A DNA stretch of 64,000 bases. Origin: Spirochaetota bacterium. Its GTDB lineage: Bacteria; Spirochaetota; UBA4802; UBA5550. The stretch covers positions 28,287 to 92,286 of the forward strand of contig JAKQPV010000125.1 of the NCBI GenBank assembly GCA_029564515.1. The letters are read 5' to 3'. The first letter of the stretch is position 1. Each line of letters starts with the position of its first letter. Positions 2,846-44,076 of the stretch are shown here, piece by piece. A program made the position numbers and the translations under genes. The notes under the pieces are model-generated. The model saw only the letters and a list, made by a program, of their open reading frames with translations. It was not told the DNA's origin and ran no database searches.

Positions 2846-2887
2846 TTGACAGTTTTCCTTTAATCTTAACATAATGAATAGTATTCA
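2846..2887 (+). promoter_or_regulatory. Putative dsrA promoter (TTGACA 2846-2851, CATAAT 2870-2875) abutted by palindromic box TGAATAGTATTCA (2875-2887)
   Basis: Read directly from the sequence. There is an 18-nt spacer. The perfect palindrome ATGAATAGTATTCAT lies 49-61 nt upstream of the dsrA ATG. Confidence 0.4.
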
Positions 2888-2935
2888 TAAAATATATGGT
2901 ATTTAGTCAACTAAAAAATATTCCGGAGGTTGACC

Positions 2936-4102
2936 ATGTCCGACACCCCTCTCCTCGATGATCTTGAAAAAGGCCCGTGGCCGAGCTTTGTCAAAGAGAT
3001 GAAGCGCGCGGCGCTGAAAAGCCCGGCAGCAAAGGACCTGCTTGGCCTGGTAGAGCTGTCCTACAAAGACCGGGTAACGCACTGGAAGCACGGCGGCATC
3101 GTCGGCGTGACCGGGTACGGCGGCGGCGTTATAGGCCGGTACTCTGACGTGCCCGAGAAGTTCCCGAACGCGGAGCAGTTCCACACCGTCCGGGTCAACC
3201 ATCCCTCGAGCTGGTTCTACAACACCGAATCGCTGCGGAAGATCTGCGATCTCTGGGAAAAGTACGGGAGCGGGCTCACCAACTTCCACGGCTCCACCGG
3301 CGACATCATACTCCTGGGGACCCGCACCGAAAACATCCAGAAGTTCTTTGACGAGCTGGTAGAGCTCGGCTTCGACCTGGGCGGCTCCGGCTCCGTGCTG
3401 CGGACGCCGACGGGCTGCGTGGGGCCGGCGCGGTGCGAGTGGGCCTGCTTCGACTCGCTCGACCTGGTTTACGACCTGACCCAGACCTTCCAGGACCAGC
3501 TCCACCGGCCCCGGTGGCCGTACAAGTTCAAGATCAAGGCGTCCGCCTGCCCCAACGACTGCGTGGCGGCGATAGCCCGCGCCGATTTCACCATCATCGG
3601 CGCCTGGAGGGACAGCATCCGCATCGACCAGAAAGAGGTGAAGGAATACGCGGCGCAGGGCATGGACATCAAGGGGCTCATCGCGGACAAGTGCCCCGGC
3701 GGAGCGCTCGCCTGGGACGAAAAGAAGCGCGAGCTTTCCGTGAAGCCCGAGGACTGCACGCGCTGCATGCACTGCATCAACAAGATGACGAAGGCGATAC
3801 GGCCCGGCACGGACAGGGGCGCGTCAATCCTGATCGGCGGCAAGGCCCCGATCCAGAAGGGGGCGTTCCTCTCCTGGATGCTAATTCCCTTCATGAAGGT
3901 CGAGCCGCCGTATACCGAGATAAAGGACCTTCTCGAGAAAATCTGGGACTGGTGGGACGAGCACGGCCGCAACCGTGAGCGCATCGCGGAAACGATCGCG
4001 CGCATGGGGTTCAAGGAGTTCCTGAAGGCCCTGGGGCTCAAGCCGCTCCCGCAGATGGTCAAGCACCCGCGGTCGAACCCGTTCATTTTCTTTAACGAAT
4101 AA
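2936..4102 (+). CDS. dsrA: Dissimilatory sulfite reductase alpha subunit
   Basis: Siroheme/4Fe-4S motifs CVGPARC ... CPNDC, ferredoxin-domain CTRCMHC, and typical N-terminus [16 protein letters not shown] prefer ATG 2936 (GGAGG at 2925-2929) over the TTG at 2930 used by the track. Confidence 0.95.
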
Positions 4103-4130: not shown

Positions 4131-5198
4131 ATGGCGAAGAAAACAGATATCGGCCCCCCCGACTACCGGATGATGCTCCCGGAGTCGATCAAGGAAAATT
4201 ACGGAAAGTGGAAATACCATGAGATACTGAAGCCCGGCCTGATGAAGCACGTCGCCGAGTCCGGTTCCGAGCTCTACACCGTGCGGGTCGGGTCCCCGCG
4301 GCTGGTCAGCATTGACTTCATCCGCGACATGTGCGACCTGGCGGACCGCTACTGCGGCGGCTACCTCCGCTTCACCAGCCGCTACAACGTCGAGTTCATG
4401 ACTCCCGAGAAGAAAAACGTGGAGCCGCTCATCGCCGACGTGAAGAAGCTGGGGCTGCCCGTGGGCGGCATCGGCGACTGCATCTCCAACGTCGTGCACA
4501 CGCAGGGATGGATCCACTGCCACAGCTCGGCGACCGACGCCTCGGGCCTGGTCAAGGCGATCATGGACGAGCTCTACCCCTACTTTACCGAATTCAGGCT
4601 GGAGGCGAAGCTCCGCATCGCCGTGGCCTGCTGCATCAACATGTGCGGCGCGGTCCACTGCTCCGACCTGGCGGTCGTCGGCATCCACACGAAGCCCCCG
4701 AAAGTCAACAACGAGAAGCTCGCCGCTACCTGCGAGATCCCCTCGGTCCTCGCATCCTGCCCCACAGGCGCCATTCACAAGCACCCGGACAAGGACGTGA
4801 AGGGCGTGGTGGTGCGCGAGGAGCGGTGCATGTACTGCGGCAACTGCTACACCGTGTGCCCGGCCATGCCCCTGGCGGACGCGGTGGGAGACGGGCTGGC
4901 CGTGTTCGTGGGCGGGAAGGTGTCCAACGCGCGCAAGCCGCCGATGTTCTCGCGGCTCGCCATTCCCTTCATCCCCAACAACCCGCCCCGCTGGCCCGAG
5001 GTGACCGGGGCGCTGAAGAATATCATAGAGGTCTACGTGAAGGACGCGCGGAAATACGAGCGGCTCGGGGAATGGATCGAGCGTATCGGGTGGGAGAAAT
5101 TCTTCCGCCTGACCGGCATCCCCTTCACCGAGCACCATATCGACGACTTCACGGGAGCGACCGAGACGTTCAGAGCGACCACGCAGTTCAAGTGGTAA
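4131..5198 (+). CDS. dsrB: Dissimilatory sulfite reductase beta subunit
   Basis: 355 aa with [34 protein letters not shown] and [12 protein letters not shown]. It follows dsrA after 28 nt. Confidence 0.95.
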
Positions 5199-5210: not shown

Positions 5211-5414
5211 ATGGCTGACCAGTCGATGGAGGAGCTGAAACAGAAGATCATCGAATTTCTAAAAAAATCGGGGCAGACGAAGAACCGGGACGTTGCCGCC
5301 GCGCTGGGAGTGGAGAAACGCCTGGTGGACAACGCCATCGGCGAGCTGAGCAGGGAGGGGGTCATCGAGTACCTCTACCTTAACGGCTCGTTTATAAAGC
5401 TGAAAGACGCGTGA
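5211..5414 (+). CDS. dsrD: DsrD, small winged-helix protein of reductive dsr operons
   Basis: 67 aa (MADQSMEELKQKIIEFLKKSGQTKNRDVAAALGVEKRLVDNAIGELSREGVIEYL...). Its size, position after dsrB and K-rich helix pattern are typical of DsrD. Confidence 0.85.
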   Translation: MADQSMEELKQKIIEFLKKSGQTKNRDVAAALGVEKRLVDNAIGELSREGVIEYLYLNGSFIKLKDA

Positions 5415-5464: not shown

Positions 5465-5782
5465 ATGGCGACAATCGACCTGAATGGAGTGATGATGGAA
5501 GTCGACGAGGACGGCTTCATCCAGGAGCCGGATAAATGGACCGAAAACGTCGCGAAGGCCCTTGCCGAGAAGGAAGGGGTCAGCGAGCTGACGGAGGCCC
5601 ACTGGAAAGTCATGAACTATCTCCGCAACTATTTCCTGGAAAACGGCATAGCCCCCATGGTGCGGAAGCTTACCAAGGAGACGGGGGTCGACCTGAAGAC
5701 GATCTACTCCCTGTTCCCGCAGGGGCCCGCCAACTCCGCGTGCAAGTGGGCCGGGCTTCCCAAGCCGACCGGATGCGTCTAA
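5465..5782 (+). CDS. dsrC: DsrC (TusE/DsrC family) with both C-terminal redox cysteines
   Basis: MATIDLNGVMMEVDEDGFIQEPDKWTE... ends ...NSACKWAGLPKPTGCV, with the penultimate Cys and a second Cys 10 residues upstream. ATG 5465 is preceded by AAAGGAGG; the track start 5411 is an upstream extension. Confidence 0.9.
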   Translation: MATIDLNGVMMEVDEDGFIQEPDKWTENVAKALAEKEGVSELTEAHWKVMNYLRNYFLENGIAPMVRKLTKETGVDLKTIYSLFPQGPANSACKWAGLPKPTGCV

Positions 5783-5795
5783 GAAGCGGGCCGCG

Positions 5796-7256
5796 ATGAC
5801 GGGACCGTCCGGCGCCAGGCCGGGCATCGCCGTGGGCGGCATGCGCGGCGGCTCGGGCAAGACCGTGCTCTCGCTCGGGCTCATCCGCGCGCTCACCCGC
5901 CGGGGGCTCACCGTGGCCCCCTTCAAGAAGGGGCCGGACTACATCGACCCCTCATGGCTCTCCGCCGCGGCGGGGGTCCCCTGCTACAACCTCGACCTCT
6001 ACCTTCTTGAAAACAAGGAGAACCTCCGTTCGTATCGCGACTCGAATCCCGGCGCCGACTGGGCCGTGGTCGAGGGAAACCGCGGCCTGTTCGACGGGCT
6101 TGACGCAGAAGGCTCGGCGAGCTTTGCGGAGCTGGTGAAGCTTCTCGACATTCCGCTTCTGCTCGTGATCGACTGCTCCAAGTCGAGCCGCACGGTAGCG
6201 GCCCTTGTGCGCGGGTGCGAAACCTTCGATCCGGAGCTTGCCCCGGCCGGCATCGTGCTGAACCAGGTCGCCGGCGAGCGCCACAGCCGCACCGTGGCGG
6301 AGGCTATCGCCCGCTACTGCGCGACGCCCGTGCTGGGCGCGCTCCCCCGGATGGCCGACCTCTCCCTTGACGAGCGGCGCCTGGGGATCGTGCCGACGGC
6401 GGAGCATGACGGACCGGATGCGGTCATCGAACGCCTCGCCGACGCGGTGGAGAAACATGTCGACCTGGCCGCGATCATGAAGATAGCGGAGTCGTGGAGT
6501 ACAAGCCCCGTTTACACCCCCGGCCCCCTCCGGCCTTCCCTCGACGTTGCGCGGGACAGGCCGGCCGCCTCCCCCGCGCGCGGGGGAGGACGGGATGGCA
6601 GCGGTCCCGTACGCCGCGTGGGCGTGGTACGCGACGCGGCCTTCCACTTTTACTACGCCGAGAACCTTGACGCGCTTGAGCGGCAGGGGGCGGAGATCGT
6701 CGCGATCAATTCACTCGCCGACGCGGCCCCGCCCGTGATCGACGCGCTGTACATCGGCGGCGGGTTCCCGGAAAACCACGCCGGGGCCCTGAGCGGCAAC
6801 GCCGCCTTCCGCCGCGCGCTGAAAAAGCTGATCGAGGGCGGCCTGCCCGTGTACGCCGAGTGCGGCGGGCTGATCTACCTCTCCACGGCGATCACGGTCG
6901 AAGGCAGGCGCTACCCCATGACCGGGATATTCCCGCTCGAATTCGAGATGTCCGACAGGCCGGTCGGGCACGGTTACACGCTGTTCGAGGTGGACGGGGA
7001 TAACCCCTTTTACCGGAAGGGCACCGCGGTACGGGGGCACGAGTTCCGCTACGCGCGTATCATCAACCCGGATGCGGCCGCGGACGTACGCACCGTGCTC
7101 GCGATGCGGCGCGGGGCCGGCGTGGGAGGCGGAAGGGACGGAATGCTCGTGAAGAACTGCCTGGCGGTATTCTCGCACACCCACGCGGGGAGCGCGGGCG
7201 CGGACTGGATCGTTTCGCTTGCCGGCGCGGTGCCGGCCGGCATTACTGCTTCCTGA
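5796..7256 (+). CDS. dsrN: DsrN, cobyrinic acid a,c-diamide synthase-like (siroheme amidase)
   Basis: 486 aa of CobB/CbiA type: GGSGKTVLSLGLIRAL, PFKKGPDYIDP, and a C-terminal glutamine amidotransferase part (YAECGGLIYL). It is located in the dsr operon. Confidence 0.8.
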   Translation: MTGPSGARPGIAVGGMRGGSGKTVLSLGLIRALTRRGLTVAPFKKGPDYIDPSWLSAAAGVPCYNLDLYLLENKENLRSYRDSNPGADWAVVEGNRGLFDGLDAEGSASFAELVKLLDIPLLLVIDCSKSSRTVAALVRGCETFDPELAPAGIVLNQVAGERHSRTVAEAIARYCATPVLGALPRMADLSLDERRLGIVPTAEHDGPDAVIERLADAVEKHVDLAAIMKIAESWSTSPVYTPGPLRPSLDVARDRPAASPARGGGRDGSGPVRRVGVVRDAAFHFYYAENLDALERQGAEIVAINSLADAAPPVIDALYIGGGFPENHAGALSGNAAFRRALKKLIEGGLPVYAECGGLIYLSTAITVEGRRYPMTGIFPLEFEMSDRPVGHGYTLFEVDGDNPFYRKGTAVRGHEFRYARIINPDAAADVRTVLAMRRGAGVGGGRDGMLVKNCLAVFSHTHAGSAGADWIVSLAGAVPAGITAS

Positions 7257-7866
7257 GCCCCTCGAGAAAGCTCTCTACCGCGTAATTGATAAGGTCACGG
7301 TACTTCTCGTTCCTGAGGATGGTTTTTTCCAGCTTGTTGAACTGTATCAGGCCGTGGAGCGTGCCCCAGAGGCAGAGGGAATGGTTCAGCGTGTTGACCT
7401 TCCTGAAATCGCCCGACCTGATGCCTGCCTCGACCGAGTCTATCAGATGATTCAGGACCTTGCCGCCGGTCTTGTCGATCCTGCTCTTGAGCCGCGCCGG
7501 GAACACCTGTCCGGGCGACGACAGGAAATAGGTTATGATGTCGTAATAGCTCTTGTTCTTTTCGCTGAAATCGACGTAGGCCGTTGCGATGGCCCTGATC
7601 CTTTCCGCGGGCGTCGCGGCCGCGGCCACGACCTCGGACACGAACCGGTTCAGGATCTCGAGCCCCTCCTCCTGCAGCGCGGCGAAAATGTCTTCCTTGT
7701 TATGGTAATAGAGGTAGATCGTTCCCACGCTCAGCTCGGAGAGCTTCGCGATCTGGTTGACCGTGGTCTCGTGCAGCCCCTTCTTGAGCAGCAGCGTCCG
7801 GGCCGCTTTTAATATGTGGTTTTTCCTCGCTTCCTTTTCCCGCTCACGTCTTTCTGTCGCGCCCAT
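7243..7866 (-). CDS. TetR family transcriptional regulator
   Basis: 207 aa from ATG 7866: MGATERREREKEARKNHILKAARTLLLKKGLHETTVNQIAKLSELSVGTIYLYYHNKEDIF (TetR HTH). Only this C-terminal part of track ORF 7243..8853 is credible. It is the last gene of the minus-strand operon, and its 3' end overlaps the dsrN 3' end by 14 nt (convergent). Confidence 0.85.
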   Translation of the reverse strand: MGATERREREKEARKNHILKAARTLLLKKGLHETTVNQIAKLSELSVGTIYLYYHNKEDIFAALQEEGLEILNRFVSEVVAAAATPAERIRAIATAYVDFSEKNKSYYDIITYFLSSPGQVFPARLKSRIDKTGGKVLNHLIDSVEAGIRSGDFRKVNTLNHSLCLWGTLHGLIQFNKLEKTILRNEKYRDLINYAVESFLEGLRKQ

Positions 7867-7889
7867 ATAACCGAATCCCCCCACATGTG

Positions 7890-8720
7890 TTAATGCGAGC
7901 CGGCATCCATGTCTATTTCCGATGCCAGCTTCCCGGCCATGATCTTCTCGTACAGCGCCGGGGCCAGCCGGTGCAGGTAATAGGTGATCCTGCCGACCGT
8001 CGTCAGGACAACGATGTCCTTCCGCGCTGCCGCTCCCCGGAACACCGCCTCCGCGACGCTGTCCGGCGAGTCCACCTTCCCCGCGGTCGACTGAGGGTGC
8101 GTCGTCACCTTCCCGTCCCCGCCCAGGGCCCGCGTCTGCAGATTCGTCTTCGTGAACCCGGGGCAGACCATCATGACATGCACGCCCAGCGGCTTCACCT
8201 CGGTGCGCAGGCTCTCGAAGAGCCCGTGCAGGGCGTGCTTGCTCGCGCTGTACCCGGTCCTTCCGATGAGCGGGCTGAACCCGGCCAGGCTCGATGTCAC
8301 CAGTATCAGACCCCTTCTCTCTATCAAGCTTTTTATGGCTGCATGGGCGCAATAAAGGGCGCCGAAAAAGTTGACGTCCATGACCCGGCGGTACACGGAG
8401 AGCTCGGTCTGCAAAAAGGGACTCCGCTGGGTGATCCCGGCGTTCGCCGCAAGCACGTCGATCCCTCCCCAGAGCCGGATGATCTCCTCCATGACGACCT
8501 CGCACTCGACCTGCCTGCTCACATCGCAGGTGAAGCCGGCAGCGTCGATACCCGCTGCCTCGAGCTCCCCGACCTGGGCGGCGACCCGCTTCCGGTCCAT
8601 GTCGATAACCGCGATCCGGGCGCCCTCCCTGCCGAAGCGGCGGCAGAGCGCGGCGCCGATCCCGCTCGCCCCGCCGGTCACGGCGACGACCTTGTTCTGG
8701 AAGGAAATTATATTTTTCAT
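7890..8720 (-). CDS. Short-chain dehydrogenase/reductase (SDR)
   Basis: TGGASGIGAAL Rossmann motif and catalytic S...YSASK. Confidence 0.85.
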   Translation of the reverse strand: MKNIISFQNKVVAVTGGASGIGAALCRRFGREGARIAVIDMDRKRVAAQVGELEAAGIDAAGFTCDVSRQVECEVVMEEIIRLWGGIDVLAANAGITQRSPFLQTELSVYRRVMDVNFFGALYCAHAAIKSLIERRGLILVTSSLAGFSPLIGRTGYSASKHALHGLFESLRTEVKPLGVHVMMVCPGFTKTNLQTRALGGDGKVTTHPQSTAGKVDSPDSVAEAVFRGAAARKDIVVLTTVGRITYYLHRLAPALYEKIMAGKLASEIDMDAGSH

Positions 8721-8755
8721 GGCATTTCACCTTACGTCCAGCCCCCGCCGTTCCA

Positions 8756-8789
8756 CCGATAGGTCCGCAAGCGCTTGCGGACCTATCGG
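8756..8789. repeat. Perfect 34-bp palindrome CCGATAGGTCCGCAAGC|GCTTGCGGACCTATCGG between the MFS and SDR genes
   Basis: Read directly. Its outer arms CCGATA/TATCGG are the same as in the 14-mer family at 43874, 43941, 46405 and 50941. As RNA it would form a roughly 15-17 bp intercistronic hairpin. Confidence 0.7.
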
Positions 8790-8804
8790 GAGGGGATGGG
8801 AATA

Positions 8805-10097
8805 TCACCCCTCCGCCTCCAGCGTCACCTTCTCCACCTTGTCCCGGTCGCACTCGTAGAAAAACGAGCCAATGTAAAAGAGCACGGCTGCGACGACCAG
8901 GAAAGCCGGGAGCACCAGCAGTGCCTTATCGATACCGAAGGAATCCGAGAGCGAGCCGACCACTATCGGGCCCGTGGATGCGCCCAGAAGGTTCTGCACG
9001 ATGACGCACAGGGCATAGGATATGGCCCTGAGCCCCGGGTGCACCACGTCCTGCGTAACCGCTGCGGCGGCCGGAACAAAGGCAACGATAACCAGCCCCA
9101 TAAACAGGATAAACACGTACTGGATATTGCCGCTGAAGAAGATGAGCCCCACGGCGAGAAACAGGGCCGACAGGACCGCCACGACAGAGGAAAACAGGAG
9201 CCGCGCGTTCTTCCTCTTTTTAAACCACATGTCCGCGATGAACCCTCCCAGGGGGGCGCCGACCAGGGCCAGGATCATGACCGATCCTCCCTTGATCCCT
9301 GCCTGATCCATCGGCATGTTATGAATGCGGTTGAAGAAAGTCGGGAGCCAGGTCATGAGCGACGTGGTCACGAAGACCATGGCCGCGAAGCCGAAATAAG
9401 TGAATAGGAGCGAGGGAGTGTGGATGAATTCCCGGAAGATGTCCATTTTGCTCATTTTCACCTTCTGCCCGCCGGCGGCCTCCGAGGTCTTGAGCAGGTC
9501 AACCGTCTTGTAGTCCTTGACGAAGAAGAACAGGATGGCCACGATCAGGCCCGGCAGGGCGACAAGGCCGAAAGCATGACGCCAGCCGAATTCCTTGGCA
9601 ATGATACCGCCCAGGGCGATGCCCACGGCGCTCCCCAGCGGTATCGACGCGTTCCATATCCCCATCATGCGCGAGCGCTTCTCCTCCGGGTAGAGTCCGG
9701 CGAGCATTGCGGTCCCGCCGGGCGCGTATCCCGCCTCGCCCACGCCGATGACGCAGCGGGCGCCGAAAAGCTGGCCGAAGTTTTTCGTGAGAGCGCAGGC
9801 GGCCGTCGCGATGCTCCATATGACCGCCATGAGGCCGATCGTCTTCTTGCGGCTCCACCGGTCGACCAGGATGGACGCCGGTATGGTGAACATGACGATG
9901 GACCAGTAGATAGCCGAAACCAGCATGCCGCACTGCGCGTCGCTTATCCCCCACTCCTCCTTGATGTGCGGGAAGAGGGAGGTGACCACCATGCGGTCAA
10001 CATAATCGAAGAAATAGAGAAGGAACAACAGGATGAAAATATAGTTCGTGTAACCCTTTGATAATTTGTATTCCTTTGTGGCGGCCTGTTCGCTCAT
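8805..10097 (-). CDS. MFS transporter, anion:cation-symporter-like
   Basis: 430 aa with about 12 predicted TM segments. The FFDYVDRMVVTSLFP motif near TM1 is typical of organic-anion MFS importers. Confidence 0.85.
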   Translation of the reverse strand: MSEQAATKEYKLSKGYTNYIFILLFLLYFFDYVDRMVVTSLFPHIKEEWGISDAQCGMLVSAIYWSIVMFTIPASILVDRWSRKKTIGLMAVIWSIATAACALTKNFGQLFGARCVIGVGEAGYAPGGTAMLAGLYPEEKRSRMMGIWNASIPLGSAVGIALGGIIAKEFGWRHAFGLVALPGLIVAILFFFVKDYKTVDLLKTSEAAGGQKVKMSKMDIFREFIHTPSLLFTYFGFAAMVFVTTSLMTWLPTFFNRIHNMPMDQAGIKGGSVMILALVGAPLGGFIADMWFKKRKNARLLFSSVVAVLSALFLAVGLIFFSGNIQYVFILFMGLVIVAFVPAAAAVTQDVVHPGLRAISYALCVIVQNLLGASTGPIVVGSLSDSFGIDKALLVLPAFLVVAAVLFYIGSFFYECDRDKVEKVTLEAEG

Positions 10098-10130
10098 TGA
10101 GTCACCTCCTTTCAGGTTCCCGGATATTTC

Positions 10131-10155
10131 CGTCCCCGGTCTTGAACCGGGGACG
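10131..10155 (-). other. Intra-operon stem-loop (CGTCCCCGG-N7-CCGGGGACG) about 30 nt upstream of the MFS RBS
   Basis: Perfect 9-bp GC-rich stem read directly. There is no U-tract, so it may be a processing/stability element or a weak terminator. Confidence 0.35.
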
Positions 10156-10272
10156 GGTACGTCCTGTGAGCAAGGTGCGTCCGGCAGCGTGAGACACCCT
10201 GATATCTTACGCTACCCTATTGCTGCAAAACATCAAGTCTTTATCGGCCCGATGCCGAAAAAACAGGGATCG

Positions 10273-11967
10273 TTACGCCTTGTATCCGCCCAGGTTCGCC
10301 AGGGCCACGCTGCCCGGGCTTATCGTCGAGGGATCCACCATGACATTGATGCACGCGGTCTTGCCCGACTTGAAGGCGGCCTCGATCGCGGGCCGTATAT
10401 CCTCCGGTTTTTCGACGAACGCACCGAACCCGCCCAGGGCCTCGACCATTTTATCGTACCGGACGAGGCCGAGCTCGGTGCCGTCCTTGATCGCGTGGCC
10501 GAGCCGGAGCTGCTGGCTGTGCGCGATCATGCCCCAGAGCGTGTCGTTGGCCACGACTGCCACGATCGGCAGGTTGTTCCTGATGGCGGTGTGGAACTCC
10601 ATGAAGTTGAAGCCCACCGACCCGTCGCCGATGACTACGAGCACCCGCTTGTCAGGGTAAAGGAGCTTTGCAGCGTTAGCGTAGGGCAGTCCGACCGCCA
10701 GGCAGCCGTACAGGCCGTAGTCCAGGTAATGGCCGGCCTTCCGCACGGTGCGGGTCATGCCCATCCAGGTGGCGGTATCGCCCCCGTCCGCGGCCACGAT
10801 ATCGTCCTCCCGGTCCATGAAGTCGTTGATCTCGCGCGCCAGGCGGAGCGGGTGGATGGGCGCACCCTCCTTCTCCCAGTTGGGCTTCGCCTGCGCCTTG
10901 CCCGCAACGTCGGCCGCCCGGACCGTCTCCACCCATTCCGCGTACTGCTTCGCGAGCTTGGGCCCCGCCTTCCGCTCGTCCACCACGCGGACAAGCTCGG
11001 CGAGCATGGCCTTGATGTCGCTTACCACGCCCAGGTCAACCGCACGGTTGCGGCCGATCTCCTCGGCCTCGATGTCCACCTGTATGAATTTCGCCGTCTT
11101 CGGGAAGATGTCGCCGAATATGTAAAAGAGCGAAAGCCGTGAGCCCAGGAAGAGCACCAGGTCCGACTGCACGTTCGCCACGAACGATGCGCCCGGCCTG
11201 ATGGCCAGGGACGACTCGAAACAGAGGGGATGGGTGTCCGGAATGACGCCCCGTCCGCCCCCCAGCGTGAAGGCCGGGATGCCCGTCTTCTCCACGAATG
11301 CGACCAGCTCGTCGCCCGCGTCGGAATACCAGGCCCCGCTTCCCGCAATCACGATCGGCTTTTTCGCCTGGGACAGCATGTCCACGATCCTGGCAGCGCC
11401 GGCCGTGTCGACCATCCGCGCAGTAACCTCGCTCCCGTATTTCCTCACCTTCGTCATGTCCGCCGCCGCGTTCAGCATGTCGCAGGGCAGCTCCAGGTAC
11501 ACGGGACCCGGCCTGCCGTTGGCCGCATAGCGGAAGGCCATGTCGATGAATTCCGGCACCCGCTCCGCGTTATGGCATACCAGCGCCTTCTTGACCATGG
11601 GCTGGATGACCGGGAGCTGCGTCATGTCCTGCAGGTCCAGCTTCTCCGTCGTTTCCAGGCCCACGCACCCTGCGATCAGGATGACCGGCGCGTTGGAGAG
11701 CCGCGCGCTCGCTATGCCCGAGAGCGCATTGGTGAACCCCGGGCCCGCCGTGACCATCGCCACAGCCGGCTTGCGCGTCATGCGCGCCATCGCCTCGGCC
11801 ATGAACACGGCCGCCTGCTCGTGACGGGTCGCGAATATCTTGACGCCGGAGTTTTCCAGGAACTGGTAGATGGGCGTGATGTGGCCCCCGCTTATCGAGA
11901 AAATATATTTCACGCCCCGCTCGATCAGGGCGTCCGCCGCCAGTTTTCCGCCGATTATTTTTTCCAT
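10273..11967 (-). CDS. Thiamine-diphosphate-dependent enzyme, acetolactate synthase / oxalyl-CoA decarboxylase / 2-hydroxyacyl-CoA lyase-like
   Basis: 564 aa. N-terminal PYR domain (RHEQAAVFMAEAMARMT, TAGPGFTNAL), middle domain, and C-terminal ThDP motif GDGSVGFNFMEFHTAIRNNLPIVAVVANN-like (VIGDGSVGF...VVANDTLWG). The layout FIQVDIEAEEIGRN...VSDIK...YAEW recalls oxalyl-CoA decarboxylase. It is not an Xsc orthologue because it has a different C-terminus. Confidence 0.85.
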   Translation of the reverse strand: MEKIIGGKLAADALIERGVKYIFSISGGHITPIYQFLENSGVKIFATRHEQAAVFMAEAMARMTRKPAVAMVTAGPGFTNALSGIASARLSNAPVILIAGCVGLETTEKLDLQDMTQLPVIQPMVKKALVCHNAERVPEFIDMAFRYAANGRPGPVYLELPCDMLNAAADMTKVRKYGSEVTARMVDTAGAARIVDMLSQAKKPIVIAGSGAWYSDAGDELVAFVEKTGIPAFTLGGGRGVIPDTHPLCFESSLAIRPGASFVANVQSDLVLFLGSRLSLFYIFGDIFPKTAKFIQVDIEAEEIGRNRAVDLGVVSDIKAMLAELVRVVDERKAGPKLAKQYAEWVETVRAADVAGKAQAKPNWEKEGAPIHPLRLAREINDFMDREDDIVAADGGDTATWMGMTRTVRKAGHYLDYGLYGCLAVGLPYANAAKLLYPDKRVLVVIGDGSVGFNFMEFHTAIRNNLPIVAVVANDTLWGMIAHSQQLRLGHAIKDGTELGLVRYDKMVEALGGFGAFVEKPEDIRPAIEAAFKSGKTACINVMVDPSTISPGSVALANLGGYKA

Positions 11968-12035
11968 GAGTGGTACTCCTTGTATTAGTTTCTAACACCC
12001 TCCCCGCCTCCCATCAAGGGAAGGGGGGACTGTAA

Positions 12036-12872
12036 TCATAATTCCATCAACTGTCCGCCGGTAATGTTGATCGCCTGGCCGGTCATGTACGACGACGCGT
12101 CCGACGCGAGGAACGCGACGAGGTTCGCCACCTCCTCCGGGGTCCCTATGCGCCCCAGGGGTATGGTCTTGCACATCTCGACCTCCCTGTCTTCGGGCGT
12201 ACACTGGAACACCTTCGCCTCCAGCCCGAACCGCCACCGCTCCAGGTCGGTCATGATCTGTCCCGGGCAGATCGCGTTCGCCCGCACGCCCGCGCCCGCG
12301 AGCTCCTTGGCCATCACCCTGGTGAGCATGATCACGCCCGCCTTGGCGACGGCGTAGGCCCCGTTCATGACCGGCGGGAACTTGCCGGCGCGCGACGCGT
12401 TGTTCACGATGCTGGCCGGCTTCCCGAGCATGAGCGGGAGCACGGCCCGCGACATGCGGAACACGCCGTGCAGGTTGATGTCGATGGTTTTCATCCACGC
12501 GGCCTCGTCGTAGGTGTGGACCGCGGCCGGGACGCCGAACGAGGCGCCCGCGTTGTTGCAGAGGACGTCGACATGGTCGAACGCCGCCTTAACCGCATCT
12601 ATCAGCGCCGCGATGGAAGCGCCGCTCGACACGTCGACCTCCACGGCCAGGGTCTTTACCTCGAACTCCTTCGCAAGCATGCCGGCGATCTCCCGCATCT
12701 CTTCGGTGGTGCCGGTTGCAACCGGAGCGCCCGGGATAGCCGCAGCGCCCAGGTCCGCGATAATAACATTCGACCCCAGGGAGGCCAGCTTCCGCGCCAT
12801 GGCAAAGCCCATGCCGGTCTTCTTTCCCGATCCGGTGATCAGGGCCGTTTTATTCTTCAGATCTTCCAGCAT
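12036..12872 (-). CDS. Short-chain dehydrogenase/reductase (SDR)
   Basis: TGSGKKTGMGFAMARKL, NNAG, catalytic S...YAVAK, and PG...T downstream motif. It is the first gene of the operon. Confidence 0.85.
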   Translation of the reverse strand: MLEDLKNKTALITGSGKKTGMGFAMARKLASLGSNVIIADLGAAAIPGAPVATGTTEEMREIAGMLAKEFEVKTLAVEVDVSSGASIAALIDAVKAAFDHVDVLCNNAGASFGVPAAVHTYDEAAWMKTIDINLHGVFRMSRAVLPLMLGKPASIVNNASRAGKFPPVMNGAYAVAKAGVIMLTRVMAKELAGAGVRANAICPGQIMTDLERWRFGLEAKVFQCTPEDREVEMCKTIPLGRIGTPEEVANLVAFLASDASSYMTGQAINITGGQLMEL

Positions 12873-12921
12873 GGTGCACCTCCTCCAGAACTATAAAAAA
12901 TGAAAAAAATTGTTGTAGAAA

Positions 12922-12952
12922 TAAATATTATTCATATTATGAACAATATTCA
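12922..12952. promoter_or_regulatory. Two tandem palindromic boxes (TAAATATTATTCA 12922-12934; TGAACAATATTCA 12940-12952) upstream of the SDR/ThDP/MFS operon
   Basis: Aligns box-for-box with 16258..16288, with the same 18-bp centre spacing, conserved boxes and a non-conserved spacer. It lies in an AT-rich divergent promoter region. Confidence 0.45.
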
Positions 12953-13065
12953 CTATATTTAATACATGAGAACCTTCGTCCCCATGTCAATAGAAAATGA
13001 TATTTTCACGGATACCCGGGACCCCGGAGCAACCGGACCCGCTATCACCGGCAGGGAGGCGGGGC

Positions 13066-13305
13066 ATGCCCGGCAGGTTTGAGCTGATATACGGCTATGT
13101 CCACTGCCGCGGCGAAACGGCCTACAGCGCGGGTTTCGTTGAGACAGAGGAAGAGGCGGCCATGTGGGTCCGCTCCATGCAGGAAGGGCGCCTGCCGCGC
13201 CCCCGCGTCCCGGACGAGGAGCCGATCCGCACATGCGGCGCTTCCTTCTGCCCCCTGAAAAGCCAGCATCCCTGGTTCTCATACCGCTTTGTTGCATACG
13301 GCTAA
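13066..13305 (+). CDS. Small hypothetical protein (79 aa)
   Basis: ATG 13066 is preceded by GGGAGG. The GC3-rich codon usage resembles neighbouring genes (MPGRFELIYGYVHCRGETAYSAGFVETEEEAAMWVRSMQEG...). No recognisable domain. Its stop overlaps the ackA stop. Confidence 0.35.
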   Translation: MPGRFELIYGYVHCRGETAYSAGFVETEEEAAMWVRSMQEGRLPRPRVPDEEPIRTCGASFCPLKSQHPWFSYRFVAYG

Positions 13306-14492
13306 TTGCCCTCCTCCAGGGCTTCCGCTACTTCCCGCGCGATCTGCAGCTCCTCGTTCGCCGGAATGACCAGCCCCCGCACCGCGCTTCCCGGCGCGGT
13401 GATGATCTCCGCGTTCGCGCCGTTCGCCGCATCGTCGAGCACGAGCCCCAGGTAGCCGAAGTGCGAGAGCACCTCGCGCCTGAGATACGCGGAGTTCTCG
13501 CCGATGCCGCCGGTGAACACGATCGCGTCCACCCCGCCCATTTCCGCGCAGTACCCGCCGATGAGGCAGGTGATCCGGTTGACAAGCACGTCGCTCGCAA
13601 GCCTCGCGGCCCGGTCGCCCGAGCGCGCCTTCTCTTCTATTATCTTATAATGGCTGTCCATGCCGGAGAGCCCCAGGAGGCCGGACTCGCGGTTGACCAT
13701 CGCCCTGATCCGCTCCGGGGCGAGCCCGCGGTCCATCAGAAAAAAGACGACCTCCGGGTCAAAGGACCCGCTGCGGGTCCCCATGGGGAGCCCCTCGAGC
13801 GGCGTGAAGCCCATCGAGGTGTCCACGCTCTTTCCGCCCCGCACGGCGCACACGCTTGACCCGTTCCCCAGGTGGCAGGTGACGGTCTTCATGCTCCCGC
13901 TGTCGCGGCCGAGCAGCTCCGCCGCGCGGCGCGCCGCGTACCTGTGGCTGGTCCCGTGGAACCCGTACTTGCGTATGCCGTGATCGTCGCAGAGCTTCGT
14001 GGGGAGCGCGTACCGGTAGACCGCCTCCGGCATGGTCCGGTGAAAGGCCGTGTCGAATACCGCGTACTGGGGAGTGCCGGCAAGCAGGCCGGTGAGGGCG
14101 TCGATGCAGGCAAGCGCCACCGGGTTGTGCAGGGGGGCAAGTCCGGATATGCCCCGCAGGTATTCCATCATTTCGGGCGTGACGGGCGCGGCGCTGCCGT
14201 ACTTTTCTCCGCCGTGCACCACGCGGTGCCCGATCGCGTCGATGTCGCGGCCGCCGGAAACAAGGCCCGCGTCCCGGAGGATGACGAGCATGTCGCCGAT
14301 TGCCTCGCGGTGGTCCCGTATCGTCATGGGCGTGGATGACACGGCGCCGAGGATCCCGGTCTTCCGGATGCACTCCGGTTTCCCCGCGGCCTCGCCGATG
14401 TCCAGGTAGTGGCCCCGGGCCGCGGGCTCATCCCCCCGGTAGAGGGTGAACTTGAGCGAGCTGCTCCCCGCGTTGATGACCAGTATGTTCAC
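13302..14492 (-). CDS. ackA: Acetate kinase
   Basis: (GTG)NILVINAGSSSLKFTLY..., HRVVHGG, and FHGTSH motifs. It starts 15 nt after the xsc stop. Confidence 0.9.
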   Translation of the reverse strand: MNILVINAGSSSLKFTLYRGDEPAARGHYLDIGEAAGKPECIRKTGILGAVSSTPMTIRDHREAIGDMLVILRDAGLVSGGRDIDAIGHRVVHGGEKYGSAAPVTPEMMEYLRGISGLAPLHNPVALACIDALTGLLAGTPQYAVFDTAFHRTMPEAVYRYALPTKLCDDHGIRKYGFHGTSHRYAARRAAELLGRDSGSMKTVTCHLGNGSSVCAVRGGKSVDTSMGFTPLEGLPMGTRSGSFDPEVVFFLMDRGLAPERIRAMVNRESGLLGLSGMDSHYKIIEEKARSGDRAARLASDVLVNRITCLIGGYCAEMGGVDAIVFTGGIGENSAYLRREVLSHFGYLGLVLDDAANGANAEIITAPGSAVRGLVIPANEELQIAREVAEALEEGN

Positions 14493-14507
14493 GGCCGCCC
14501 GGCCCCG

Positions 14508-16232
14508 CTATACCGCGCTCAGGTGCTTGTACTTGGGCAGGTACCGGACCGGCGGCTTGAACGCGTCGCGCCGGAACGGCTCGGCGAGCACCTTCTCGCC
14601 GCCCTCGATCACCGCGTTGATGACCGCCGCCTTGCCGCACTTCACCGCTTCCGCCACCGCGTCCTTCACGTCCGCGTAGTTCTCCACGGTGATGCCTGTC
14701 GCGCCCATGTCGCGCGCGAGCTGGGCGTAGTCCGGGTTCGTGAGCAGGTCGGCTCCTACAAAGCGGCTCTTGAAGAAGTCAATCTGGTTCTTCTTCTCGG
14801 CCCCCCACTCGTGGTTGTTGAACACGACCGCGATCACCGGGATGTTTTCCCGCACCGCGGTCATCACCTCCGAGAGGCCGCTGATGCCGTACGCGCCGTC
14901 GCCCTGGAGGGCAAAGACCGGCGTGTCAGGCGCCGCCATCTTCGCGCCCATGGCCGCGCCGTACGCGAACCCGCAGTTGCCCCAGGAGAGCGCGGATATG
15001 TGGCGGCGCGGCTCCGAGAATGTAAGATAGCTGTTGCAGATCGAGGAGTTGTTGCCGATGTCCGTGGCCACGATGGAGCCGGCCGGTATCGCGTCGGTAA
15101 GCTCCTTGATGAAGCGCCGCGGGTGCATGAGCTTGTTTGTGGACGAAGACCAGCCGTCGAGCTCTTCCTTCCACACCGCCTTTTCCTTCGCGATGTCCGC
15201 GAGGCGGGCCGCGTCCTTCTTCCGGCCCTTGTCCGCGGCAAGCAGGGCGGCCAGGAGCTCCTTCGCGAACTCGCGCGCGTCCGCCATTACGCCCAGGTCA
15301 ATCTTCCTGGAGATGCCGAGCTGCGAGCCGTCGATGTCCACCTGTATGAGCTTCGCCGTTTTCGGCCAGTAGTCGATGTCGTACTGCGGCAGGGTGCCGA
15401 AGGGCCCGAGCCTGGTGCCGAGGGCCAGGACCACGTCCGCCTTCGCGATGGAGCGCATGGCGGCCTTGGACCCGCAATAGCCGATCGGGCCCACTGCCAG
15501 CTCGTGGTCCGCGGGGAAGGTGTCGTTGTGGAGATAGGTGTTCACCACCGGCGCGGTCAGGTACTCGGCAAGGGCCTTCACCTCGGCGTGGCCGTCGGCC
15601 ATGGATACGCCGCCGCCGGCCAGGATCACCGGGTACTTCGCACGGGCGAGCAGCTCGGCCGCCGTCCGCACCTGCCCGACCGTCCCGCCGCCGTAGTTGA
15701 CGTTCGCGGTGGGATATATATCGCAGTCAATGTCGCCGTAGAAAAAGTCGCGCGGGATGTTGAGCTGCGCCGGCCCGCACAGGAGCTTGGCCATGTAGAA
15801 GCAGCGCCGCGTCAGCTCCGCCATCCGCTCGGGACGGTTCACCCTCACCTGGTACTTGGTGCACTTCTCGAACCAGGGCATCTGGTCCAGCTCCTGGAAC
15901 CCGCCGGTGCCGATGCCCATGCTACCGGTTTCCGGAGTGATGGCGATCACGGGAGAGTGGGCCCAGAAAGCGGCGGTCACGGCCGAGATGAAGTTGGCGG
16001 CACCCGGACCGTTCTGGCCGATACAGCACTGGGGACGGCCCGAGACGCGGGCGTACCCGTCCGCGGCGTGTGCTGCCGCCTGCTCGTGCGCGACCGATAT
16101 GAACCGGATTCCCGCGGCCGGGAACAGGTCCAGCGCGTCCATGTACGCGCTGCCGACGATCCCGAATATATCGCGGATTCCTTCGGCAACAAGGGTCTCA
16201 ACAAAGGCTTCAGAGGGTGTCATTTTTGTCAT
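14508..16232 (-). CDS. xsc: Sulfoacetaldehyde acetyltransferase (ThDP-dependent; sulfoacetaldehyde + Pi -> acetyl phosphate + sulfite)
   Basis: 574 aa. Collinear with remembered Xsc sequences: MTPSEAFVETLVAEGI, QNGPGAANFISA, GGFQELDQM, AQLNIPRDFF, GPIGYCGSKAAM, ADVVLALGTRLGPFGTLPQYDIDYWPK, IQVDID, ATDIGNNSSI, GDGAYGIS, EWGAEKKNQ, and the diagnostic C-terminus LAEPFRRDAFKPPV. Confidence 0.8.
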   Translation of the reverse strand: MTKMTPSEAFVETLVAEGIRDIFGIVGSAYMDALDLFPAAGIRFISVAHEQAAAHAADGYARVSGRPQCCIGQNGPGAANFISAVTAAFWAHSPVIAITPETGSMGIGTGGFQELDQMPWFEKCTKYQVRVNRPERMAELTRRCFYMAKLLCGPAQLNIPRDFFYGDIDCDIYPTANVNYGGGTVGQVRTAAELLARAKYPVILAGGGVSMADGHAEVKALAEYLTAPVVNTYLHNDTFPADHELAVGPIGYCGSKAAMRSIAKADVVLALGTRLGPFGTLPQYDIDYWPKTAKLIQVDIDGSQLGISRKIDLGVMADAREFAKELLAALLAADKGRKKDAARLADIAKEKAVWKEELDGWSSSTNKLMHPRRFIKELTDAIPAGSIVATDIGNNSSICNSYLTFSEPRRHISALSWGNCGFAYGAAMGAKMAAPDTPVFALQGDGAYGISGLSEVMTAVRENIPVIAVVFNNHEWGAEKKNQIDFFKSRFVGADLLTNPDYAQLARDMGATGITVENYADVKDAVAEAVKCGKAAVINAVIEGGEKVLAEPFRRDAFKPPVRYLPKYKHLSAV

Positions 16233-16257
16233 GGCGGATACTCCAGGCAGGAATTAT

Positions 16258-16288
16258 TGAATAATATTCAATATGTGAACTATATTCA
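16258..16288. promoter_or_regulatory. Two tandem palindromic boxes (TGAATAATATTCA 16258-16270; TGAACTATATTCA 16276-16288) 28-58 nt upstream of the xsc ATG
   Basis: Read directly. The first box is part of the perfect 17-bp palindrome ATTGAATAATATTCAAT (16256-16272). Confidence 0.45.
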
Positions 16289-16421
16289 TTAAGCATTTCC
16301 CCTGTCAATGATTTTTTCTTATTTAAAAATAGTTTGATTTTTTTCATCAATTGGGGGCCTATGTCATCAATTATTGAGCGTGCTTCACGGCGGACCATCG
16401 CGGGGATAGGGCTGTTTTTCC

Positions 16422-17285
16422 ATGAAAATTGATATTTATAAACTGCACAAGCTCTATGACACGTACCATGACGAGGTCACCTGCCACCTGTACTCGGACG
16501 TGGTCGTGGGCGGGAAAAAGCTGAAAGCCGGGTCCGAGCTCCTCCTCTACGATATCGTCCAGCTGAAAAAATCGCGGATCTTCGAGGTCGAGGTGGTCTT
16601 CAACGTCACCCTGTACGAGTACCTGAACAGGGAGTATCCCGTGGAATACCGGCGGCCGGTGATGTGGCTCGATTACAGCGAGCTGGACCGGCACCTGGAA
16701 GAGCTCGAAGCGGCGAACGCCCAGACCAAGCGGAAGCGCTTCCTCACCGTTATCGGCGACGTGTACCGGGGCGACGTCAAGTCCGGCCAGAGCATGGCCG
16801 TACTCAAGCACGGCGACCGTCTCGACTACAGTAAGTGGCGGGTAAACAAGATGTACGTGGACACCGGCCAGAAGTTCTTCCTCCGCACGTCCGAGACCGG
16901 CATTATTCAGTTCGGGGCGCTGAAGGCGGAAGAATACGCGGACGAGACCGACGGGTTCCGCAAGAAGCTCGACCTGATGGGCTCCATGCTGGCGCACCGT
17001 TCCGACAAGAAATTCGAGATAGCGCCGGACTTCATCCCGAACAAGGACCTGCGCATCGTCGCCCTCCCGGGCCAGCTCCTCGAGGAATACATCAACACGA
17101 ACGCCCGGCTCATCGTCATCGACGAGACGCTCTCCCCGGCGCAGAAGGAAGCGCTCATCCAGGTGAAGAATTACGATCCCTTCCTCAGGTTGATGCTCTC
17201 GCCCCCCCTCACCGCGCAGAACATCGAGCACGTCCTGCTGCAGGTCAAGATGATGTACAACACCGAGCGCTGGAAAAAGAAGTAG
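16422..17285 (+). CDS. Hypothetical protein (287 aa), no recognisable domain
   Basis: Normal K/E/L-rich composition, in contrast to the Arg/Val-rich antisense ORF 16371..17348. It is divergent from xsc and convergent with phoH2. Confidence 0.6.
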   Translation: MKIDIYKLHKLYDTYHDEVTCHLYSDVVVGGKKLKAGSELLLYDIVQLKKSRIFEVEVVFNVTLYEYLNREYPVEYRRPVMWLDYSELDRHLEELEAANAQTKRKRFLTVIGDVYRGDVKSGQSMAVLKHGDRLDYSKWRVNKMYVDTGQKFFLRTSETGIIQFGALKAEEYADETDGFRKKLDLMGSMLAHRSDKKFEIAPDFIPNKDLRIVALPGQLLEEYINTNARLIVIDETLSPAQKEALIQVKNYDPFLRLMLSPPLTAQNIEHVLLQVKMMYNTERWKKK

Positions 17286-27464: not shown

Positions 27465-27598
27465 AGATAACTCCCGGGAAATGGTATCGTCGCCCCGCAA
27501 ACCGACCCAGCGGGTACCGGCCGGCCGGACGAATCTTACTATTGGACTTATAATAGCCATAAGGGAAGGCATTGTCGTCCGGTAAGATAAATCCGGAT

Positions 27599-27639
27599 AA
27601 AAAAAAGTGCCCGCCGTGGTCAAGACGGGATTGACGGGC
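27599..27639 (-). terminator. Intrinsic-terminator-like hairpin + U8 inside the 5' leader of the GRE fusion gene
   Basis: Minus-strand RNA: GCCCGUCAAUCCCGUCUUGACCACGGCGGGCAC-UUUUUUUU. The 3' arm GGCGGG(C) can pair with either of two upstream CCCGUC copies. The G-U wobble means pairing works only on the minus-strand transcript. No minus-strand gene ends upstream of it. Confidence 0.4.
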
Positions 27640-44056: not shown

Positions 44057-44076
44057 TATCAATCAAGGGATTGTGC

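Follow-up and report, generated by a model that had tools for sequence, protein, structure and literature searches.

A 64,000-nt stretch of DNA from a Spirochaetota bacterium (assembly GCA_029564515.1, contig JAKQPV010000125.1, positions 28,287-92,286 of the forward strand; this whole stretch is hereafter the window, and positions are counted within it) carries, beside its dsr genes, seven minus-strand genes that we propose to constitute a single TetR-controlled regulon for organosulfonate respiration, a reading that we consider fairly probable on the sequence, synteny, and motif statistics that form the evidence base throughout. The genes fall into two operons separated by a 430-bp gap: one for sulfoacetaldehyde acetyltransferase and acetate kinase (xsc-ackA), and a feeder operon for a short-chain dehydrogenase/reductase (SDR-A), a thiamine-diphosphate (ThDP) enzyme (ThDP2), a major facilitator superfamily (MFS) transporter, a second dehydrogenase (SDR-B), and a TetR-family regulator. 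The positions and order of all seven, given in an original prediction from the letters alone, agree with the open reading frames (ORFs) of the window. The same prediction had described a self-contained island, an idea supported by the synteny of the feeder genes with xsc and dsr across phyla and by an operator common to xsc, SDR-A, and dsrA.

In the proposed pathway, the MFS transporter would import a small, probably three-carbon, hydroxy-sulfonate, which SDR-A would oxidize to an oxo or hydroxy-oxo intermediate in a step that we propose to be NAD(P)-dependent; SDR-B would handle a second hydroxyl, the other enantiomer, or isethionate. ThDP2 would then take one carbon off the intermediate to yield sulfoacetaldehyde, Xsc would convert sulfoacetaldehyde and phosphate to acetyl phosphate and sulfite, AckA would use the acetyl phosphate for ATP generation, and the neighboring DsrAB/DsrC/DsrMK would reduce sulfite to sulfide. 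Alternatively, SDR-B, or a Zn-dependent alcohol dehydrogenase (Zn-ADH), may interconvert isethionate and sulfoacetaldehyde.

Xsc, AckA, the Dsr proteins, and a shared operator

Proteins were compared with NCBIfam models at their curated cutoffs, with Pfam for domains, and with the PDB (sequence search) for relatives of known structure. The 574-aa product of xsc (14508-16232, minus strand; C-terminus EPFRRDAFKPPVRYLPKYKHLSAV) scores 771.9 bits against the equivalog model TIGR03457 (cutoff 676.4) and 853 bits against NF005713 (cutoff 620), whereas the best acetolactate synthase (ALS) model gives 362 bits (vs. 866; all ALS cutoffs exceed 500), such that both Xsc models are above cutoff and the ALS models below it. 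The ThDP motif reads GDGAYG...VVFNNHEWGAE, with Glu six residues past the second Asn; a superfamily survey from 2026 lists a Glu after the NN motif, E510, for Xsc (PMC13327070). Database relatives that share 70-94% identity carry the Xsc annotation and belong to metagenome-assembled genomes (MAGs) of Spirochaetota and Desulfobacterota. At the level of sequence, the originally predicted identity of this protein as Xsc is confirmed by the curated equivalog cutoff. Acetate kinase (ackA, 13302-14492, minus strand) follows after 15 nt, as had been noted; the protein passes TIGR00016 (409.8 vs. 293.4 bits) and PF00871 (415.7 vs. 22) at full length, and these models leave acetate and propionate specificity undivided.

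The left flank carries dsrABDCN on the plus strand and, divergent from it on the minus strand, an RsbRD_N-domain gene followed by dsrM and dsrK. DsrA (2930-4102; TIGR02064, 572.3 bits, cutoff 392.9), DsrB (4131-5198; TIGR02066, 509.2 bits, cutoff 341.5), DsrC (5465-5782, 105 aa; TIGR03342, 116.3 bits, cutoff 53.5), DsrM (1167-2156; NF038037, 455.6 bits, cutoff 300), and DsrK, partial at the window edge (1-1227; NF045796, 514 bits, cutoff 400), all score above their curated cutoffs, and the DsrC C-terminus CKWAGLPKPTGCV holds both C-terminal Cys. The putative dsrD (5211-5414), for a 67-aa winged-helix protein with an HTH_24 match, is named from its size and its position after dsrB, a position that its homologues share in L089, L090, and L093 (such labels denote homologous metagenome loci). 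The label dsrN (5796-7256) likewise reflects position, directly after dsrC; its product belongs to the a,c-diamide synthase family and passes cobyrinic acid a,c-diamide synthase (CobB) models (NF002204, 418.4 bits). The RsbRD_N-domain ORF (2153-2647; PF14361) is the first gene of the dsrMK operon, and also precedes dsrM in L003, L092, and L112. This Dsr inventory covers the 64-kb window; sat, aprAB, and qmo are beyond its reach.

The promoters of xsc and SDR-A are alike: both have TTGACA, a -10-like hexamer about 18 nt further on, and two palindromes close to TGAATA-N-TATTCA spaced 18 bp apart. At xsc (16258-16308, minus strand), TTGACA at 16308-16303 and TATAGT at 16284-16279 are accompanied by a perfect operator (16258-16270) and a second with two mismatches (16276-16288); at the feeder operon (12922-12990, minus strand), TTGACA at 12990-12985 is followed by operators at 12940-12952 and 12922-12934 with one mismatch each. 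A perfect copy, TGAATAGTATTCA (2875-2887), unused in defining the motif, abuts the -10 hexamer of the dsrA promoter (2846-2887, plus strand; TTGACA 2846-2851, CATAAT 2870-2875), 43 nt before the dsrA start. The window holds six sites in total against 0.84 expected, all of them intergenic; under a null of intergenic composition, sites with at most one mismatch number four against 0.03 expected (0 of 2000 simulations) and perfect sites two against 0.0005. Five of the six belong to the promoters of xsc, SDR-A, and dsrA, where each comes just past TTGACA.

In 14 other loci, which include Syntrophales and other Deltaproteobacteria, the operator is found again 13-81 nt ahead of xsc, SDR-A, or ackA, often as a pair spaced by 18 bp. 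Operators of the feeder promoter are kept in ten loci (L008-L011, L014, L030, L031, L058, L059, and L067), and those of the xsc promoter in three (L001, L008, and L009). For dsrA, a comparison set of 80 metagenome loci found with a DsrA query yielded an upstream operator in only two, each with one mismatch (L112 at -84 and L094 at -79); L112 shares the divergent dsrMK/dsrAB layout of the window and also encodes SDR-B and TetR at a distance of 8 kb.

The regulator itself (7243-7866, minus strand, 207 aa) is the last gene of the feeder operon, has an N-terminal helix-turn-helix domain (PF00440), and overlaps the 3' end of dsrN with its stop by the 14 nt originally described. With palindromic candidate sites at the -10 region of three promoters, we infer this TetR protein to be the binder of the operator. 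A second TetR paralogue (44071-44709, plus strand, 212 aa), 24% identical to the first over the N-terminal 95 residues, is preceded by the sixth site, a perfect palindrome AGAATATTATTCT after TTGACA that differs from the island operator in the outer base only; by its placement, this paralogue probably autoregulates. A 354-aa ferredoxin-domain protein is encoded after it (44744-45808).

From these sites and their conservation we conclude with high confidence that a single regulon comprises xsc-ackA and the feeder operon; in this organism dsrABDCN probably also belongs to it.

A conserved SDR-A/ThDP2 module

Homologues of ThDP2 at 59% identity or above were collected from 80 genome loci, and ORFs were clustered over 85 loci. 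The lineages represented are Spirochaetota/'Leptospirales', Syntrophales/Smithella, Desulfobacterales/Desulfobacula, Desulfomonilia, SAR324, and Myxococcota, with the closest homologue (98%) in a Spirochaetota MAG. In 73 of the 85 loci the gene immediately upstream of ThDP2 is SDR-A, and the anion transporter that comes next is of the SBF (39 loci), MFS (22), divalent anion:sodium symporter (DASS; 7), or another type (4). SDR-B is present in 34 loci and replaced by a Zn-ADH in 13, while the orthologue of the window TetR gene occurs in 37. Accessory partners include a TauE/SafE-family transporter beside ThDP2 (three loci), a pyridoxal phosphate (PLP)-dependent decarboxylase/lyase-like protein (five), a fusion of serine hydroxymethyltransferase and GcvT (SHMT-GcvT; four), and, in or beside the module in six loci without adjacent xsc (L030, L031, L035, L046, L056, and L067), a tungsten-type aldehyde:ferredoxin oxidoreductase, which suggests oxidation as an alternative fate of the aldehyde product. 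The synteny check that had been recommended thus returns the same gene set in 85 loci, and by this comparison SDR-A/ThDP2, a transporter, a second dehydrogenase, and TetR are a conserved module.

The module is also linked to Xsc and to sulfite respiration. Xsc is encoded within 9 kb in 21 of the 85 loci, in at least eight distinct gene orders, where chance placement of a single-copy gene would give about 0.5% per locus. The neighboring Xsc proteins form three subclades, at 42%, 50%, and 64-100% identity to the window Xsc; those sampled from each, seven from other loci and that of the window, without exception score above the TIGR03457 cutoff. An adjacent ackA gene is found in 11 loci and adjacent dsrMKJOP in 10, the latter from three lineages; in Syntrophales MAGs the order dsrMKJOP-ackA-xsc-SDR-A-ThDP2-MFS-ADH-TetR runs on a single strand.

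These associations bear on the alternative that the substrate of the feeder operon is an anion with no sulfonate group (such as a hydroxy-acid, or a compound resembling acetoin or a diol), that its proximity to xsc and dsr stems from shared anaerobic energy metabolism, and that Xsc is fed by taurine or isethionate enzymes encoded elsewhere. None of the components matches a sulfonate-specific family, the SDRs being generic FabG/BudC-like and ThDP2 similar to ALS and 2-hydroxyacyl-CoA lyase (HACL); most loci (64 of 85) are without adjacent xsc; and aldehyde:ferredoxin oxidoreductase and Zn-ADH partners would suit generic aldehyde metabolism. In the Myxococcota MAG L168, moreover, xsc has its own ackA, class-V aminotransferase, and Fe-dependent ADH, apart from the module. 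However, a non-sulfonate substrate is difficult to reconcile with an Xsc frequency of 21 in 85 loci spread over three clades and at least eight orders, with an operator common to xsc and SDR-A across phyla, with dsrMKJOP adjacent in 10 loci (some of them lacking xsc), with the TauE/SafE transporters, and with the invariant arginines in the substrate loops of both SDRs. We therefore regard it as quite unlikely.

Several observations nevertheless weigh against the regulon as proposed. The operator consensus was built from the xsc and SDR-A sites, leaving the dsrA site and the other loci as its independent tests, and the four closest other dsrA loci (L089, L090, L092, and L093) are without the dsrA operator. 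With a second TetR next to a related operator, the assignment of regulator to site is a tentative one. Xsc is missing within 9 kb from 64 of the 85 loci, the Spirochaetota locus L001 is without both SDRs, and the six loci with aldehyde:ferredoxin oxidoreductase show that the aldehyde product would not always be sent to Xsc. Every module-bearing genome seen is a MAG, so single contigs may be mis-binned, the gene linkage itself being within single contigs. The sequence also gives no discrimination between sulfolactate and 2,3-dihydroxypropane-1-sulfonate (DHPS) as the substrate. With regard to missing xsc genes, L168 is instructive: on its 2.43-Mb chromosome, ackA-xsc is about 55 kb from the ThDP2 module, and therefore absence of xsc from a locus is not the same as absence from the genome. 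The class-V aminotransferase gene follows ackA-xsc there, with the Fe-ADH nearby, as a differing candidate set of Xsc feeder genes.

Thiamine genes are found near ThDP enzyme genes in two loci: a thiL-like gene, thiC, and thiM cluster at 53279-56908 of the window, and in L003 (4820-7508) thiM-thiE-thiC is directly upstream of a module encoding two ThDP enzymes. This proximity may represent a cofactor-supply linkage.

ThDP2, its partner proteins, and the candidate substrates

ThDP2 (10273-11967, minus strand, 564 aa) has three ThDP Pfam domains and reaches the cutoff of no NCBIfam model. Its best scores are to HACL- and oxalyl-CoA decarboxylase (OXC)-type models, all below cutoff: 409.6 bits against 587 (PRK05858, NF004516), 332 against 600 (2-hydroxyacyl-CoA lyase, NF058623), 303 against 557 (oxalyl-CoA decarboxylase, NF006721), and 288 against 739 (TIGR03254). 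Acetolactate synthase was rejected as an identity, with TIGR00118 at 296.8 (cutoff 538), TIGR02418 at 248 (551), and NF006378 at 263 (510). ComD and ComE models are absent among the best 25 of 51 NCBIfam matches; as a single ALS-like chain, ThDP2 would not be a member of the ComDE family, and at most could work like ComDE.

The nearest PDB relatives are 2-hydroxyacyl-CoA lyases (6xn8, 262 bits), oxalyl-CoA decarboxylases, and benzaldehyde lyase (BAL; 246 bits). With BAL and actinobacterial HACL (AcHACL) (2ag0 and 7pt1), ThDP2 shares the fold and the three ThDP domains at a similarity of about 245 bits to either. GGH29I, E50, and Q113 are invariant in nine members of the ThDP2 family. Glu50 and His29 align residue-for-residue with AcHACL (RDEGSA; GGHI), His29 corresponding to BAL His29 and AcHACL His44; the motifs GGHI, ADGGD, and GCL are common to ThDP2 and actinobacterial HACL, and the C-terminal NN...WG..H.QQL segment aligns to BAL and formolase. 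We take ThDP2 and BAL to share their numbering in the aligned region, and BAL His29 and Glu50 to have catalytic roles. Glu50 is the ThDP-activating cofactor Glu, and Gln113 equals BAL Gln113 and AcHACL Gln128 (by our alignments and the table in PMC13327070). In AcHACL, this His and Gln hold in place the water molecule that deals with the hydroxyl beside the attacked carbonyl (PMC13327070). For this reason His29/Gln113 makes C-C cleavage of an alpha-hydroxy-carbonyl compound more likely than simple decarboxylation of a 2-oxo acid, without proving it. Ile481 replaces AcHACL Glu493 and BAL Thr481, a position also held by Glu473 in pyruvate decarboxylase (PDC), Glu510 in Xsc, and Ile480 in pyruvate oxidase. 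The C-terminal tail is short and strictly conserved, ending about 40 residues before the C-terminal lid of AcHACL.

These features also bear on whether ThDP2 could be an HACL/OXC-type lyase or decarboxylase of CoA esters, converting, for example, sulfolactyl-CoA to formyl-CoA and sulfoacetaldehyde. The best PDB and NCBIfam relatives are of this type (6xn8 and PRK05858), and three motifs are shared with actinobacterial HACL. However, the HACL/OXC scores all fall short of their cutoffs; the catalytic Glu493 of AcHACL and the region of its lid are missing; and no CoA ligase, CoA transferase, or formyl-CoA transferase is found among the recurrent neighbor families of the 85 loci or the annotated neighbors. 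A CoA-ester substrate thus appears very improbable. Since ThDP2, unlike AcHACL, is without a CoA-handling partner gene, its substrate is likely to be free (non-CoA), and its genomic context is sulfonate and sulfite rather than aromatic or acetone-related metabolism. From its sequence and surroundings we infer that ThDP2 makes sulfoacetaldehyde.

A further alternative is that ThDP2 is itself a desulfonating enzyme, acting on 3-sulfopyruvate or 3-hydroxy-2-oxopropanesulfonate supplied by SDR-A, by forming an Xsc-type thiamine-bound enamine and eliminating sulfite to give acetyl phosphate, or acetate and CO2/C1, while Xsc and SDR-B/ADH serve a parallel branch from isethionate to sulfoacetaldehyde. 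Certain loci are arranged as this would predict: L024 has dsrMKJOP-ackA-SDR-A-ThDP2-MFS-ADH-TetR and L078 has SDR-B-c22-ackA, both without xsc; the module stands beside dsrMKJOP without xsc in L047 and L048; and xsc directly follows SDR-B in five Desulfobacterales-type loci (L045, L066, L072, L073, and L079). Ile481 also resembles Ile480 of the phosphate-using pyruvate oxidase, where carbanion-protonating enzymes often have Glu; this argument is weak, because Xsc keeps Glu there (E510, PMC13327070), the window Xsc included. In addition, xsc may sit elsewhere in the genome, as in L168, the recruitment of three Xsc clades beside SDR-A/ThDP2 would be left unexplained, and the association with aldehyde:ferredoxin oxidoreductase suggests that a free aldehyde is released. 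We consider direct desulfonation by ThDP2 unlikely, and prefer the production of sulfoacetaldehyde for Xsc.

Both dehydrogenases appear suited to an anionic substrate. SDR-A (12036-12872, minus strand), the partner of ThDP2, and SDR-B (7890-8720, minus strand) have SDR Pfam matches and score as generic FabG/BudC-like; for ThDP2 and both SDRs, NCBIfam, Pfam, and PDB sequence searches returned only generic or sub-threshold matches and no specific family. Arg161, Lys164, Lys/Arg212, Trp213, and Arg214 are conserved in SDR-A, and Arg154 (three residues before the catalytic Tyr) and Arg197 are invariant in SDR-B; conserved Arg/Lys in both substrate loops would be consistent with an anionic substrate. 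Trp213-Arg214 of SDR-A and Arg154 of SDR-B may resemble the sulfonate-binding residues of R-hydroxypropyl-CoM dehydrogenase. The MFS protein (8805-10097, minus strand; PF07690), predicted to import organic anions, resembles the anion:cation symporter (ACS) group below cutoff (TIGR00893, 187 bits vs. 395). The 84-nt spacer between the MFS and SDR-B genes contains a perfect palindrome of 17+17 nt (8756-8789, 34 nt; CCGATAGGTCCGCAAGC/GCTTGCGGACCTATCGG), which may form a hairpin within the operon or serve to bind a protein.

The entry substrate is probably sulfolactate or DHPS. In the first route, 3-sulfolactate would be oxidized to 3-sulfopyruvate and decarboxylated to sulfoacetaldehyde and CO2, with ThDP2 replacing the unrelated ComDE; this is a tentative possibility, with which DASS and ACS-type transporters, suited to a dianion, would fit. 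In the second, likewise put forward with reserve, DHPS would be converted to sulfolactaldehyde or another hydroxy-oxo-sulfonate, from which C-C cleavage of the BAL/HACL type would yield sulfoacetaldehyde and C1 (formaldehyde or formate). The His29/Gln113 active site leans to this DHPS route, and the aldehyde:ferredoxin oxidoreductase, Zn-ADH, and SHMT-GcvT partners fit it, as does the redox balance of DHPS to acetate, CO2, and H2S. The remaining probability falls to other sulfonates.

The genes originally listed near xsc are all present; a small ORF in the gap between the two operons and a nearby glycyl-radical enzyme (GRE) had been missed. The ORF (13066-13305, plus strand, 79 aa) is divergent from SDR-A, overlaps the ackA stop by 4 nt, and occupies the same intergenic region as the feeder operators. 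Its Cys-rich product (about 80 aa), with an HC...C...CP motif in an 11-locus alignment, has no Pfam match and is kept in four lineages (L003, L004, L008, L009, L014, L017, L018, L041, L043, L053, and L078). On the far side of xsc, a divergent gene (16422-17285, plus strand) shares the operator-bearing intergenic region; its product (287 aa) matches nothing in Pfam or NCBIfam. The gene for the L008 homologue (88%) is likewise beside xsc, and that for the L112 homologue (58%) is some 7 kb downstream of dsrB.

The GRE (24120-27623, minus strand), 8 kb beyond xsc between a TolC-like gene and an AcrB-type pump gene, is a 1167-aa fusion of a radical-SAM activase (residues ~90-320) and a glycyl-radical domain (341-1165). 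Its best named matches are the DHPS enzymes HpfG and HpsG, far below cutoff (372 and 352 bits, respectively, vs. 1000), and IslA in the PDB gives 220 bits, so that it is assignable to none of the three. The enzyme could open a second route, by radical chemistry, for a sulfonate or a diol; it could equally have no connection with the island. In nine of the 80 dsrA loci (L103, L115, L121, L139, L143, L153, L157, L159, and L160), a GRE gene is divergent from dsrA, about 200-500 bp upstream. This enzyme (877 aa in L157) was rejected as IslA (344 bits only), its best PDB match being Archaeoglobus PFL2 (506 bits). The dsrA-divergent GRE may be a further sulfite-producing enzyme wired to dsrAB.

Comparison with known sulfonate-respiring systems

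Organosulfonates such as DHPS, sulfolactate, isethionate, and taurine are among the main compounds through which sulfur and carbon are exchanged. To our knowledge, H2S formation from them under anaerobic conditions has been linked only to a handful of cultured Desulfovibrionaceae, and the enzymes implicated are radical enzymes or SuyAB. The island points to widespread uncultured sulfite respirers among Spirochaetota, Syntrophales, Desulfobacterales, SAR324, and Myxococcota in digesters, sludge, fens, and sediments that would employ Xsc with a ThDP/SDR feeder, and suggests that some dsrAB counted as sulfate-reduction potential may be regulated within sulfonate respiration. Dsr-encoding Spirochaetota MAGs are already known; if TetR does gate DsrAB, those of the present type would be dedicated organosulfonate respirers, not sulfate reducers. 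In a survey of MAGs, xsc and reductive dsrAB were found in the same genomes, and MAGs with a single step of the taurine route were also noted (PMC12019592); the module would account for MAGs with xsc and dsrAB but without a known route to sulfoacetaldehyde. Three short promoter fragments and four soluble enzymes make the proposal open to direct testing.

The feeder steps had been suggested to be possibly new, and this view stands: no specific curated family takes in ThDP2 or either SDR, and no description of them was found in the literature. In full-text literature we found no account of the SDR-A/ThDP2 module or of its operator, nor of any regulatory link with dsrAB, and likewise no ALS-like sulfopyruvate decarboxylase, no ThDP enzyme in DHPS or sulfolactate catabolism, and no such cluster in sulfate-reducing bacteria, Syntrophales, or Spirochaetota. 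It is conceivable, though we would not lean on it, that SDR-A/ThDP2 represents a new oxygen-tolerant route for C3-sulfonates in strict anaerobes, with ThDP2 as a new C-C lyase or a second Xsc-like desulfonase and DsrAB gated by a sulfonate-sensing TetR. As a lyase, ThDP2 would cleave a hydroxy-carbonyl sulfonate derived from DHPS or sulfolactaldehyde into a C1 unit and sulfoacetaldehyde; as a desulfonase, it would convert sulfopyruvate directly to sulfite and an acetyl unit.

The aerobic sulfolactate pathway of Roseovarius nubinhibens, reportedly SlcD-ComDE-Xsc-Pta (an account credited to Denger et al. 2009), has the same chemistry as the sulfolactate route above, from sulfolactate through sulfopyruvate and sulfoacetaldehyde to acetyl phosphate and sulfite. 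It differs in that SlcD is membrane-bound whereas an SDR is encoded here, ComDE takes the place of the 564-aa ALS/HACL-like enzyme, Pta is used instead of AckA, and sulfite is oxidized or exported rather than respired. Among the published anaerobic sulfonate routes (IslAB, HpsG/HpfG, SuyAB, and CuyA), the isethionate route of Bilophila wadsworthia (SarD and glycyl-radical IslAB) and the DHPS routes (HpsG/HpfG) likewise release sulfite from sulfonates for Dsr under anaerobic conditions, but they employ radical C-S cleavage, in contrast to the oxygen-tolerant ThDP chemistry of Xsc.

The closest counterpart is taurine respiration in Taurinivorans muris, described in 2023, where Tpa-Ald-Xsc-AckA feeds DsrAB-DsrC (PMC10507020); Xsc was known earlier from taurine fermentation in Desulfonispora, according to the citation in that work (PMC10507020). 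In this strict anaerobe, too, Xsc yields acetyl phosphate and sulfite, AckA forms ATP, and Dsr respires the sulfite, and thus the concept of Xsc passing acetyl phosphate to AckA and sulfite to DsrAB is already known (PMC10507020). The island differs in having no taurine aminotransferase or alanine dehydrogenase, its feeder consisting instead of an SDR, a ThDP enzyme, and an MFS transporter; its genes adjoin dsr and share an operator with dsrA, and its host belongs to the Spirochaetota, not the Desulfovibrionaceae. The logic of respiration is therefore a known one, and what is new is the feeder and the regulatory wiring.

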